Shown here one piece after another: positions 13,557-20,850 of a stretch of 32,000 nt of DNA (within the stretch, counting starts at the first letter, position 1; every line of letters begins with the position of its first letter). This DNA comes from Promethearchaeota archaeon. Its GTDB lineage: Archaea > Asgardarchaeota > Lokiarchaeia > Sigyniarchaeales > Promethearchaeaceae. The notes under the pieces were generated by a model that worked only from the letters and a program-made list of their open reading frames with translations, made no database searches and was not told where the DNA came from. A program made the translations under genes and the position numbers. The stretch is from positions 690,001-722,000 of the forward strand of contig JAFGBS010000009.1 in assembly GCA_016933055.1 (NCBI GenBank). Reading direction: 5' to 3'.

Positions 13557-15060
13557 ATGCAAAAAATGGACAAGTGGACACCCGAAAAACGTGTTATCAC
13601 AACACTCAATCACGAAGAACCGGATCGAATCCCGATTCATGAAGGAAGTATCGAGATACCAGAATTAGCCCAATCGACAAATGCGTTAAATGAAAAACCA
13701 GGCTTATTATTTATGCCATACGGAATTACTCGAATACTCACTACTTCTTGGGTTCAACCAGTAAGAAAAACATTCTTTAAGATTCTCAAAAAACCAAGTG
13801 TGTTAGATCCAATTATAAAACCTGCTTTCAATCAAACAACAGGGTTATTCCGGAAATATAGGGTAGATTTAATTGGATATACTGCAGGCATCCCTATGAT
13901 TTTCAGTGAGAAATTGTATACCGATTTCTACGTAGATAACCTCAAGCGTCGTGTTATGGGACCACACAATAACATTGTCACAGAATTGCCATCAAACAAC
14001 AAAGGTGGTGCGGTTCAGAGAAATGGTTTTCTAAATGGACCTGAAGATTATGAAAAATATATGGAATTTGATTCCGATCATCCGGGAAATTATTTTTTCA
14101 TCATCAATTTCCACGCTATCCTTTAGATATAGAAGTTTACTCGGATTTAATCCGTTTAACTACGCTACAAGCCTATTACGTGGTTCTCTATCCTATGGGA
14201 TAGGTGGAACCACTTCATAGGTTATAGCGTAGGTGTTCCTTAAACCCGTGAGAAATTGCGATGAGGTGTCTTAGACACCCAACTTTCGGCATTTGACGGT
14301 ATATTACGATAGTTTTAACTGTTTGGGATTACCTACTTATCAGAAAGGTCGGAATAGATGTTAATTACCCAAAATTCTAAAAATCGCTGAAGGAAAAATA
14401 GCATTTATGTTCTATATTCACGGGGCAGCTTTTTTCGAAATGATGTCTGATATGTTCGGATTTGTGACCCTTTTTAAGTTATTGGTTAAAAATAAAGTAT
14501 TCATAAAAAAGGTGGTAAAAGATCTTAGTGATTATACATGTGACGTAGCAAAACATCTCCTAGAGCGAGGTGTGAGGATATTTTATATGGGAGATGATCT
14601 TGGATTAAAAGGTAAAGGGATTATATCACCTCGAATGTATGAGGATTTTTTCCATGAGAGTATAAAAAAATTTACTCGGATTGTTCATGATAAAGGGGGA
14701 TACATAATTCGACATTCTTGCGGCTATTTTAAAGAATATATTCCTTTTTTCCAAAAAGAACATATTGACGGCCTGCATCCTTGGGAGTCTAGTGCTGGCA
14801 TGGACATTTTTGAAGGGAAACAAAAGTGGGGTAACGAATTTACCCTGGTAGGCAATGTACCAATAGGTATGCTTTCGCATGGTAGTCGAAAGGAAATACG
14901 AGATTATGTATTAAATTTAATCAAAATATGTGGTCTTGGTGGGGGATATATTGACGCTTCATCGCACTCCATAGTGCCGTCCTGTAAATGGGATAATTAT
15001 CTAACTATGTTATGGACATTAAAGAAATATGGAAAATATCCAATTGATTTGAGTATTTAA
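13557..15060 (+). pseudogene. URO-D / MtaA-CmuA family (methyltransferase-fold) gene split by a ~260-bp insertion
   Basis: The 5' ORF (13557-14126) has the family N-terminus (KRVITTLNHEEPDRIP). The 3' frame is open from 14365 (LPKILKIAEGKIAFMFYIHG) and carries GDDLG...ISP..Y, HSCG and GNV motifs. Removing e.g. 14104-14362 fuses both parts into a 414-aa ORF. Confidence 0.8.
14103..14362. mobile_element. Structured non-coding insertion element, copy 1 (family not recognised)
   Basis: Interrupts a gene, contains several hairpins and shares four ordered sequence blocks with 18450-18654. The ends are approximate to within a few nt. Confidence 0.65.
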
Positions 15061-17210: not shown

Positions 17211-18380
17211 ATGGAATTAAAAGAGAACATCCAAGATGCAAAAAATCACATGAGTGCATGGTGGGATCATGAAATCATTAATCGTCCCATAATCGGATAC
17301 ACCTATCGTAAATTTAACTTTAAATCCTCTGTGCCGTATTCAAGTTGGGATTTAGCGAAAAATAATGATGCTATTGAAATTATTTATGATAAGTTTATTC
17401 GAAACTCAACAAACCAGAAATGGGGGGCAGAAATGTTCCCTAATTTTTGGCCAAATTATGGTCCTGGAATTATGGCTGCAGTTTTTGGCTGTGAACCCGA
17501 ATACAAAAATAGTACAGTCTGGTTTCACCACCCTATTTCTCTTGATGACATTGTACCTTTATTAGAAAGTGCACAATTAAACTCAAATAATAAATGGTAC
17601 GCACGATTACTTCAAGTCACGCAATTTGTTGCTGAGAGATCTAACGGACAATTCTCCGTAGGAATGAGTGATATTGGAGGAGTTTTGGATATTCTGTCCT
17701 CATTTTTAGGTCCAACAGAAATAATCATTGCTATGCGACGCAATCCAGGAATTATAGATACTTGCCGGTCAATAATATTAGAGAAATTAATAAATGTATA
17801 TGATGATTTGCAGAATATTATTGATAATTATAATTTGGGTTGTAACGGGTGGCTAAATGTTTGGTGCCCGAAACGATATTATACGATCCAATGTGATTTT
17901 GCAGCAATGTTATCGCCTAAATATTTTAAAAGATTTGCACTACCTGATATCATTACCCAAGCAGAACATTTGGATTATGCAATATATCATTTAGATGGGC
18001 CCAATGAGATCCCTCACATAGCCGATTTACTTGCTGAACCTTCCATCACTGGTATCCAATGGGTTCCCGGTATAGGGCAACCCTCAACGGAATCAGAAAA
18101 ATGGTTTCCTCTGTATAATAAGATCCAAGACGCAGAGAAAAATCTAGTACTTGATTGCTCCCCCTTTGGTATATCTTATTTATATAAAAAATTGAAACCT
18201 GTCGGCTTATTCGTAAGAACCTATACTTTGAACCGAATAATCGCAAAAATGTATCTACCAAAGTTTATAAAAGGATGGGGTGATTTTTTTGGAAGGAAAC
18301 CCTCTAAACTCGGAGAAGATATGATGATAGTGAAAAATAAATTTCGCTTGAAAATTATGAATGCAGCTCATAGCATGTAA
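17211..18380 (+). CDS. URO-D superfamily / corrinoid methyltransferase-like protein
   Basis: WPNYGPG, DIGGVLDILSSFLG, IQCDFAAMLSP..F..FALP, YHLDGP and IQWVPG motifs. Confidence 0.8.
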   Translation: MELKENIQDAKNHMSAWWDHEIINRPIIGYTYRKFNFKSSVPYSSWDLAKNNDAIEIIYDKFIRNSTNQKWGAEMFPNFWPNYGPGIMAAVFGCEPEYKNSTVWFHHPISLDDIVPLLESAQLNSNNKWYARLLQVTQFVAERSNGQFSVGMSDIGGVLDILSSFLGPTEIIIAMRRNPGIIDTCRSIILEKLINVYDDLQNIIDNYNLGCNGWLNVWCPKRYYTIQCDFAAMLSPKYFKRFALPDIITQAEHLDYAIYHLDGPNEIPHIADLLAEPSITGIQWVPGIGQPSTESEKWFPLYNKIQDAEKNLVLDCSPFGISYLYKKLKPVGLFVRTYTLNRIIAKMYLPKFIKGWGDFFGRKPSKLGEDMMIVKNKFRLKIMNAAHSM

Positions 18381-18449
18381 TTTTTGTTTTCAGTTCAAGT
18401 TTATCTAATTACCTTTGGTGTTTTGTATAAACTTTTCGAATTCTGTGTA

Positions 18450-18654
18450 ATCAAATTTGTACACACTACTCTATAAACCACGAGCTACGCTAAAAACCTA
18501 CCCGTGGAATAATTAGGATAGGTTCTGTTAGCATAGGTGTGCTTATAAGCCATAAATTATGGGATATCATCAAGAATTCGCTGGTGATTCCATTAGATAG
18601 ATCTAGTTCGTCAAAAAGGCAGTTTACGATGTGGAAAATTGTGGAATAGATGTT
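18450..18654. repeat. Structured non-coding element, copy 2 (diverged relative of 14103-14362)
   Basis: Carries ctacgctaaaaaccta, tagcataggtgt, ttacgat and ggaatagatgtt in the same order as copy 1. Lies between convergent genes. Confidence 0.6.
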
Positions 18655-18672
18655 GTCTATTTAATTATGCGG

Positions 18673-20850
18673 TTATTTTTTACGATTAAGGATTACATTA
18701 TAGAGATATAATGCTCTAATGAATGGTCCAGTTGCATAAGAGGCAAAATCTACGCTTGTAGAAGTGCTCCAATTTTCCAAAGTACCCCACATGATTTCGT
18801 TTGTTGCTCGATCCTGGTTATGCTGAAAATACATGTAATGAGAATGAAATCCAAAACCTGCTTCGGCATATTTCAGAAATGTACGATCCCAGATAGCCAG
18901 TTCCAATAAACTTTCAATTGCTTGACACAATTCAGATCCTCCAATGACCGGAAATCCCATTGATTTATAGGTGGTTACGGGTAAACCTCCTGTTATAATG
19001 TTATTCTTTATGTCTCGAACCCCAGATCCCCACATATAACTTAGAAGATGCCATGCTGCACTTCGGGCATGATCTAACCATTCATTTTCCTTTGTCAGCT
19101 CATATAATTTGGAAAAACATTTAATACAACCCACTGCAGTAACCAAATCCCCTTGATGATTAGCCGCGTCGGTTTCAAAATATATTCCGTAATACTCTCC
19201 ATCCTCCAATAAATTCAAGCAAGCATGTAATGCAGCCGAACCCGCGTCTTGAATTATATCATCTTTATATATAAACCCCCACCAAAATAGTAGTGTAGCA
19301 GGATAAATACATGCTAAAGTTTTGCGATCCCAAAAGATTTCTCCATCCTCTCTCAACTCTTGATCCCAAAGTCCGTCTTCTCTTTGATATTTCATTAAAA
19401 ATTCTATGGTTAATTGAATTGCACTTCTCAATCTTTTTTTCATTGCATCTATTGAATCTGAAGATGAATGTTCATTGGATAGTTGGAGTAACACTTGGAA
19501 TAAATTATAAGCTATTTGACCCGAAAAAGGAGGAGAAACCACCAATAGTTCGTATTTTTTAAAAGCTCCGGGATTATTTATTTCACGAAAAAAAATCAAG
19601 AAATTTTCTACAAGGAAATGCCATACACCATTTTTTAACTGGTCTTTTATGGGGGGTAAGTTCCATAGAACTTTCCTACCTTTTTTATCCCGCTCAATTG
19701 GAAAGAAACCTGTAAATCCTTTTTTCGGATCTTGGATTCTTCCCGTGGTCCAGTAATCAAGTTCTTCATTATACGTATCTAAATAAGCCCCTGCTATAGG
19801 TCCTGTTTGAATTAACGAATCATCAAGGAGTGGTGGGAGAAATTCTTTTGAGAGAATGTTGAGATATTTTCCATCTTTCATCCACGAATACAAAGCCATG
19901 GTTCCTGTAATATATCCTAAGGAAAAACAATTCCCAATTGTTGTTAATCCCATTTTATCATATATATATCCCTTATTCTTATCTGATATGCAGTTGATGA
20001 AACTGGAGGGCATTTTTCCAGACTTAGATTCTAATAGGAAATGTTCATACAAAGTGTTAAATGAAAGTATTGCCTCTGTCTTTAAATTATCTTGATATTT
20101 GATTGGGAGAGGATCCATGGGAAGTATATTGAGAAGTTTTTCTTTTATAGGAGTCACAAAATCACCTCGACCGGCGATAATACAGAATTTAGTTTGCTTT
20201 TTCACCTTAATTTTTTGAGAAAGCAAGACTTCATTCGCATTAAATTTTGCACGGAAATTTTGAATTTCTGGCTGATTTAACCCAATTATGCCAGAATAAA
20301 GAGCCCCCGAATGAATTGTCCATACTTGCCCAAAAGCTCCCGTTGGAGGCACTTTAAGTGAAAAATTTTGAGGATTTTCCACTTTTCGATATTTATTTCC
20401 TGATAAATTGATGTAATCATATTGATTGGAATTAAAGAAATTTATTTGAATTATTAGGATTAAATTTCGGTTAGAAAAATTTCCTTGAAAGTCAGAGTTA
20501 ATATATATTACAGGAGAATTATCTTTTATCATTAGTAAAAGATCCACGCCATTAGTAAGAGTAACTTTAAGTTCATAATCGCCATTAGATTTTCTCACTG
20601 TTGAGTAGGAAAGTACTTTTAACTTTTTATGACCCAGTTTCATTGAAATTTGAGTTATTGCTGATACCCGTTCATTCTCTCGTTTAATTTGAATACTTCC
20701 GATTTTTCCTTCTGATTCCGTATCATGCTCAAACAGAAATATATTGTTCTCAATCGCACTTCTCATAGCTAATGATTGTAAATACGTTCCTAATAAATCC
20801 TTAATTTTATCCTCAAGAATTAAAAGGAAGAAAATCGTTGAAGTATCCAA
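18673..20850 (-). CDS. Hypothetical protein with a beta-rich N-terminus and a probable (alpha/alpha)6 six-hairpin glycosidase-like C-terminus
   Basis: Repeated helical hairpin patterns (FLMKYQREDGLW, LYELTKENEWLDHA, GGLP). Start uncertain: TTG at 20850 or ATG at 20766. Confidence 0.6.
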   Translation of the reverse strand: MDTSTIFFLLILEDKIKDLLGTYLQSLAMRSAIENNIFLFEHDTESEGKIGSIQIKRENERVSAITQISMKLGHKKLKVLSYSTVRKSNGDYELKVTLTNGVDLLLMIKDNSPVIYINSDFQGNFSNRNLILIIQINFFNSNQYDYINLSGNKYRKVENPQNFSLKVPPTGAFGQVWTIHSGALYSGIIGLNQPEIQNFRAKFNANEVLLSQKIKVKKQTKFCIIAGRGDFVTPIKEKLLNILPMDPLPIKYQDNLKTEAILSFNTLYEHFLLESKSGKMPSSFINCISDKNKGYIYDKMGLTTIGNCFSLGYITGTMALYSWMKDGKYLNILSKEFLPPLLDDSLIQTGPIAGAYLDTYNEELDYWTTGRIQDPKKGFTGFFPIERDKKGRKVLWNLPPIKDQLKNGVWHFLVENFLIFFREINNPGAFKKYELLVVSPPFSGQIAYNLFQVLLQLSNEHSSSDSIDAMKKRLRSAIQLTIEFLMKYQREDGLWDQELREDGEIFWDRKTLACIYPATLLFWWGFIYKDDIIQDAGSAALHACLNLLEDGEYYGIYFETDAANHQGDLVTAVGCIKCFSKLYELTKENEWLDHARSAAWHLLSYMWGSGVRDIKNNIITGGLPVTTYKSMGFPVIGGSELCQAIESLLELAIWDRTFLKYAEAGFGFHSHYMYFQHNQDRATNEIMWGTLENWSTSTSVDFASYATGPFIRALYLYNVILNRKK

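Follow-up and report, generated by a model that had tools for sequence, protein, structure and literature searches.

The insert that splits a gene of the URO-D family in the DNA analysed here (the window, 32,000 nt) is, with high probability, a 263-nt nonautonomous DNA transposon (MITE) of a genus-restricted family, which entered the gene at the DNA level by cut-and-paste into a TA dinucleotide. The insert is short and lacks coding capacity, it belongs to a multicopy family dispersed over the genome, the family has terminal inverted repeats, and a target-site duplication was reconstructed at its borders. In the mechanism that we propose, a DDE transposase of the IS630/Tc1-mariner type, missing from the assembly, would have acted in trans. 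The MITE would have moved by cut-and-paste into the TA at the centre of the palindromic A/T-rich target TTTT-N3-TA-N3-AAAA, which would have happened to fall in codons 180-186 of a URO-D/MtaA-like paralog. The TA would have been duplicated by the insertion, and the frameshift together with an early stop would most likely have inactivated the paralog. Such an event is ordinary, the routine disruption of one paralog among several by a small transposon.

This is the only copy of the family that clearly lies in a conserved coding sequence, so that the sequence before the insertion can be deduced codon by codon. The copy thereby fixes the ends of the element, the TA duplication, and the palindromic target. 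It is also of help for annotation, since many candidate "structured RNAs" in this genome are copies of the same MITE family, and the exact ends can be used for finding the missing transposase in better Asgard assemblies. The coordinates of the features are collected in Table 1.

Table 1. Features of the interrupted gene and of the element, in positions of the window.
Feature	Positions	Strand	Basis or remark
N-terminal part of URO-D-family gene	13557..14102	+	182 codons; aligns with N-terminal parts of uninterrupted homologs
Left half of target site, TTTTTTCA	14093..14100	+	gene codons Y-F-F-I, outside the element
Left copy of putatively duplicated TA, now TC	14101..14102		family consensus TA-ATCAA; frame and length argument
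MITE body, 263 nt, no ORF	14103..14365	+	nhmmer family match, E = 1e-42; full-copy alignment
Small hairpin cggat-tta-atccg	14141..14155	+	sequence-variable spacer of the family
Central long hairpin	14159..14233	+	base conserved in the family, distal stem copy-specific
Small hairpin ggtgtc-tta-gacacc	14265..14279	+	different hairpins at the same position in other copies
Conserved 3' module	14292..14365	+	TTTGACG..TTTTACGATAG...GGAATAGATGTT[G>A]AT; common to several subfamilies
Right copy of duplicated TA target	14366..14367		
Right half of target site, CCCAAAA	14368..14374	+	gene codons P-K-I
C-terminal part of URO-D-family gene	14368..15060	+	230 codons and stop

Junction of the insert in the URO-D-family gene

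The sequence and the ORF list agree that the gene consists of two open halves in different frames (offset 1), as a previous sequence-only reading of this DNA had described when it placed an insert between them. The ORF of the N half (13557-14126) reads, past 14102, seven foreign codons of the element and then ends at TAG 14124-14126. The frame of the C half is open from 14365 to 15057, after TAA 14362-64 and before the stop at 15058-60, and its first internal ATG is found at 14407. This half corresponds to positions 147-346 of the Pfam URO-D profile, while in a full-length ortholog the Pfam URO-D match covers the C-terminal part, residues 151-405. The interrupted gene is a methyltransferase-like, URO-D/MtaA-like paralog, and the genome holds at least five URO-D-family matches, that is, at least four loci besides the interrupted one. 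Uninterrupted orthologs of 405-412 aa are known.

The alignment with uninterrupted orthologs that had been suggested as a check was carried out. We rebuilt the gene in silico for four removal lengths (259, 262, 265, and 268 nt), and each product was aligned with four orthologs of related genomes that lack the interruption and are about 50% identical. Removal of 265 nt, the element at 14103-14365 plus one dinucleotide, yielded a protein of 412 aa that aligned without gaps with the four orthologs and fixed the junction. The other removals needed a gap, leaving two extra residues (259 nt), one extra residue (262 nt), or one residue lost (268 nt). The cut at 14104-14362 formerly proposed, with a product of 414 aa, was therefore right in its length of 1 mod 3 and wrong in its exact junction. 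The closest uninterrupted homolog in a large protein collection was P0002 (407 aa), with identities of 59% (N half) and 69% (C half); its alignment with the restored protein was also gapless, and the DNA matched codon for codon over the junction.

After the removal of 265 nt the junction reads ...TTTTTTCATACCCAAAA..., and the uninterrupted site is expected to be TTTTTTCA-TA-CCCAAAA. The gapless and codon-exact alignment with the homologs implies that the T-run and the A-run are gene sequence and not part of the element. The order at the site, TTTTTTCA-TC-element-TA-CCCAAAA, matches the target palindrome of the family. This homolog alignment is the closest substitute for an empty site that could be had, and it argues for a 2-bp duplication of TA with a later change of the left copy to TC. 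The duplication at this place is one that we infer, as the left copy is not intact; a target-site duplication had not been recognised in the sequence-only reading. Five uninterrupted homologs represent the state before the insertion in place of a true empty allele. The sister species (G001) has no ortholog of the interrupted gene, so it offers no empty site of the same genus for comparison. In another genome of a single contig, G022, the ortholog was seen only as a 226-aa open frame matching the C half (L036, G022:C1:2564878-2568465), and it may be truncated or interrupted too.

A misassembly, which the previous reading had named as a possible refutation, is improbable: the whole stretch recurs in an independently built assembly of the probable source run, and run X2, from a hot springs metagenome of 2017 belonging to the one other study in which the gene occurs, contains a contig across the 3' junction. 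The short contigs of X2 were 100% identical to parts of the gene within 13597-14668 of the window, 3' junction included, and they place the same or a very close strain in a second sample, whose habitat label differs from the sediment source. The insert was present among these identical gene pieces, and X2 thus contained no empty allele.

The repeat family, its ends, and its target

The genome of this Loki-type Asgard archaeon comprises 3.76 Mb in 36 contigs and is 91% complete. When the insert was compared with it by BLAST, a check also proposed earlier, a single full-length relative (72% identity) and numerous partial matches were obtained. Three rounds of nhmmer then extended the family to 92 matches in 83 blocks on many contigs. 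These were made up of about 27 full copies (180-230 nt), about 47 matches to the 3' module only, and about 18 to the 5' module only, the conserved 3' module being about 75-90 nt long. Alignments with flanks showed that the apparent solo modules are sister subfamilies, which share one module and differ in the other, and not fragments.

Most copies have the ends TA-ATCAA...TTGAT-TA. The body of the URO-D copy runs from 5' ATCAA to 3' TTAAT, where the family consensus 3' end is TTGAT; counted with the TA, the terminal inverted repeats are TAATCAA/TTGATTA in most copies and TCATCAA/TTAATTA in the URO-D copy. In one copy (C17:281482-281903) the terminal inverted repeats are perfect over 16 bp. In at least four cases abutting copies have a single TA in common. 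Among 60 well-defined 3' ends, the flank after the TA showed R (73%), T (55%), N, and then A at +3 to +6 (85, 87, 70, and 68%). The 5' flank, taken from 30 asymmetric 5' ends, mirrored it, with T at -4, -5, and -7 (73, 70, and 67%) and a pyrimidine at -1. Considering that the two flanks mirror each other, the preferred target is the palindrome TTTT-N3-TA-N3-AAAA.

To find copies inside genes, we required that a block be flanked on either side by an open frame of 70 codons or more, the two on the same strand. In this test 80 of the 83 blocks failed, and the URO-D copy, with 215 and 210 codons on either side, was the only one clearly in a gene. Two weaker candidates were left: one of them, inspected over its full length, is intergenic, and for the other no gene split across the copy is seen in the ORF table.

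The window holds a second copy of the MITE superfamily at 18448-18657 (5' TG-TAATCAAATTTGTAC ... GGAATAGATGTTGTCTA 3'). It belongs to a subfamily with a different 3' half and sits between two convergent genes, 17211-18380 (+) and 18673-20850 (-).

The sister species also carries copies of the family, at nonorthologous places, and BLAST with the URO-D copy gave no family match in 59 other genomes of the order. A search of a collection of genome contigs with the 16-mer of the terminal repeat returned only chance matches in unrelated bacteria, and none of the 47 matches of the two-block pattern of the 3' module in a collection of metagenome contigs fitted the family HMM. As far as these searches reach, the family is confined to the genus. 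It appears to be undescribed, and our literature search found no paper joining Asgard archaea and MITEs.

Several contigs end inside family copies (C18:2930-3011, C35:46127-46208, C20:4586-4722, C30:124650-124785, and C23:17969-18058), and the ends of C18 and C35 are identical over 87 nt. Since repeats break the assembly, the copy number is underestimated, and young or similar copies, perhaps even an autonomous element, may have been left unassembled.

Transposase searches and comparison with known systems

The profiles DDE_3 (PF13358, IS630), rve, TnpB (PF07282), and Y1 (PF01797) had no match in the 91% complete genome. The same was true for mariner (PF01359), a profile whose control search matched none of the control genomes either. 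In the sister species (76% complete) neither DDE_3 (PF13358) nor TnpB (PF07282) was detected. An all-against-all comparison of the 2,847 ORFs of at least 150 aa revealed no gene with three or more copies that were at least 70% identical, and the few duplicated genes (PAC2, GATase, transporter, Ras-like GTPase, and similar) were of housekeeping type.

Other possible partners were also considered. Inverted pairs of family ends 0.7-6 kb apart, which could have delimited an autonomous element, enclose ordinary genes only, and the ORFs adjoining solo modules are ordinary genes as well. One IS110-type gene in the sister species and the IS630-type genes in two relatives (G005 and G018) were discarded for the lack of family ends. 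A DDE_Tnp_1 gene (IS4/IS5-type) at about 3190-3495 of contig C8 (7,655 nt) is decayed, with four in-frame stops; it is a single copy without family ends and was likewise set aside. The first ORF of C8 has a bacterial-looking signal peptide, and this contig may be a contamination of the bin.

Known systems resemble the family in part. Stowaway-like MITEs, such as SM1 of Sulfolobus, linked to ISC1048, are derived from IS630/Tc1-mariner elements. With the MITEs of this group the present family has in common a length of about 100-400 nt, the lack of an ORF, many copies, terminal inverted repeats, insertion into a TA that ends up on both sides, and a mostly intergenic location. It departs from them in that a cognate DDE_3/mariner transposase with matching ends, by which such a MITE would be recognised, was found neither in its own genome nor in the sister species nor at the inspected IS630 loci of relatives. 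Moreover, IS630/Tc1-mariner MITEs do not generally have the TTTT-N3-TA-N3-AAAA target, the conserved 3' module, or the conserved internal hairpin.

The Correia/NEMIS elements of Neisseria are orphan TA-flanked MITEs that form hairpins when transcribed and can lie next to or inside transcription units; no transposase is known for them. The present family is likewise an orphan TA-flanked family that folds into hairpins, but Correia/NEMIS elements are bacterial and unrelated in sequence, and their hairpins arise from the terminal repeats, while the main hairpin of the present family lies within its 5' half. Rickettsia palindromic elements (RPE) insert in frame into genes and are translated. Like the present family they are palindromic repeats of which a copy is found within a protein-coding gene; in contrast to their in-frame and translated insertions, the URO-D insertion adds 265 nt (1 mod 3) and meets a stop after seven codons. 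A survey (PMC11602168) presents prokaryotic MITEs at large as nonautonomous, mainly intergenic, and reliant on external transposases, and the present family conforms to that description.

Alternative explanations, fate of the gene, and folding

Three other kinds of insert had been put forward from the sequence. A nonautonomous IS200/IS605-type (PATE-like) or omega-RNA element, moved as single-stranded DNA with the aid of TnpA/TnpB, would be in keeping with the conserved hairpin of the 5' half, which shows some compensatory changes, with the sharply defined insertion site, and with the report of IS200/IS605 elements in more than 65% of Asgardarchaeota genomes (PMC13343696). We regard it as very improbable, considering that elements of this kind have no inverted ends, a one-sided target, no duplication, and a TnpA or TnpB/IscB partner. 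In the present family the ends are inverted repeats, perfectly matched over as much as 16 bp, and the target is symmetric on both flanks with a common TA; its own genome lacks a Y1 TnpA, and TnpB is absent from that genome and from the sister species. Upstream of the 3' modules there is no ORF, and no consensus structure was recovered for this module. The Rfam covariance-model scan that had been recommended also turned up nothing relevant in the whole window at the gathering threshold, and at a permissive one (E <= 10) only chance-level snoRNA/miRNA matches (E ~1) in the region, so that it was empty for the HEARO/omega-type families that Rfam holds as well as for group I and group II intron cores. 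Less credible still is an intron that the archaeal splicing endonuclease would excise from the RNA at a bulge-helix-bulge, or that would splice itself out. The ends of the insert can pair (CAUC/GAUG, UUCC/GGAA) and the removal of a length of 1 mod 3 restores the frame, but the pairing forms a symmetric 3x3 internal loop instead of two staggered 3-nt bulges. A scan for the pattern helix/3-nt bulge/4-bp helix/3-nt bulge/helix (hBHBh') gave only low-complexity U-run/A-run pairings, and each candidate either has its cut ahead of the in-frame TAA 14362-64 or takes out 3-10 codons too many with respect to the homologs. Only one of the 83 family blocks is clearly in a gene, the opposite of the pattern for an intron family. 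Two metatranscriptome runs of the source study contained no part of the stretch, and the contigs over the stretch contain no joint that bridges the insert. As for a new mobile structured RNA, the ends and the target are those of a cut-and-paste DNA transposon, and nothing points to retromobility.

Within the preferred reading of a MITE inserted at the DNA level, the reading frame is displaced and meets a stop codon within the element, 24 nt from its start, and the gene was therefore probably inactivated. Its loss would be tolerable, taking into account the other URO-D-family loci of the genome. Both halves, nevertheless, are still free of stops and frameshifts. In a simple neutral simulation, both halves remained stop-free in 53% of the trials at 1% divergence, 27% at 2%, 16% at 3%, 4% at 5%, and 1% at 7%, so that under this model their state is likely only if the neutral divergence since the insertion does not exceed 2-3%. 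The URO-D copy bears marks of decay (left TA to TC, TTGAT to TTAAT); 2 of the 30 strongly conserved columns of its 3' module are changed, which equals the family median, and no two assembled copies exceed 92% identity, a contig-end duplicate aside. The way in which conserved blocks adjoin variable ones suggests that most differences between copies predate the insertion, which makes a recent insertion from an unassembled source copy plausible.

These observations also give a small chance, unlikely as we judge it, to a gene that still works, and stays under selection, in spite of the MITE, either with the two halves made separately and reassembled (the C half from the ATG at 14407, with a promoter inside or downstream of the element) or with the insert removed from the transcript. 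The intact halves, gapless against the homologs, speak for it, as do the marks of decay set against the simulated stop-free chance at 5% neutral divergence and the want of any closely similar pair of assembled copies. On the other side, there are only loose limits on when the insertion happened, and at 1-2% divergence 27-53% of the trials would leave both halves intact; the split interrupts one TIM-barrel domain (in orthologs the Pfam URO-D match extends over both halves), no splice-like motif was found, and at least four other loci of the family exist. We consider it improbable, at a level somewhat below that chance, that the family is moved by a transposase of an unrecognised kind or uses its internal hairpin in a single-strand step, or else that the transcript is read past the insert or freed of it and the gene is functional, the last of which would explain why the halves are still intact.

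The RNA of the insert folds with -81.4 kcal/mol, compared with -60.7 +/- 4.8 for dinucleotide shuffles (z = -4.3). This value, the family of 92 matches, and the lack of any meaningful ORF, already stated in the sequence-only reading, bear out its general proposal of a mobile, noncoding, structured, and nonautonomous element in the URO-D gene; the stems and the two TTA-loop hairpins that it listed are all present. The base of the central hairpin is conserved (ACTACGCTA.AAGCC pairs with GGTT.TAGCGTAGG), and the hairpin was steadier than shuffles (z < -2) in 28 of 42 copies. A MAFFT alignment recovered the basal stem alone, since the distal parts differ in length, with a few compensatory changes (e.g., ACTATGCT/AGCATAGG). 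Both small TTA-loop hairpins fall in spacers of variable sequence, which hold different hairpins in other copies. In the 3' module it is the sequence that is conserved; 69 copies gave no consensus secondary structure. The folds are features of the element family rather than a mechanism by which the insert is excised from the mRNA, and the hairpins are not needed to explain the interruption of the gene.

The sequence of the distal stem varies by copy and is often a perfect 12-20-bp inverted repeat. Unrelated repeats of this kind occupy the same position of the central hairpin at C27:110244-110469, C17:733911-734116, C13:27776-27972, and C36:126716-126916 of this genome (G000). The copy-specific stems look like the result of strong selection for a stem, or of a process that makes local inverted duplications.
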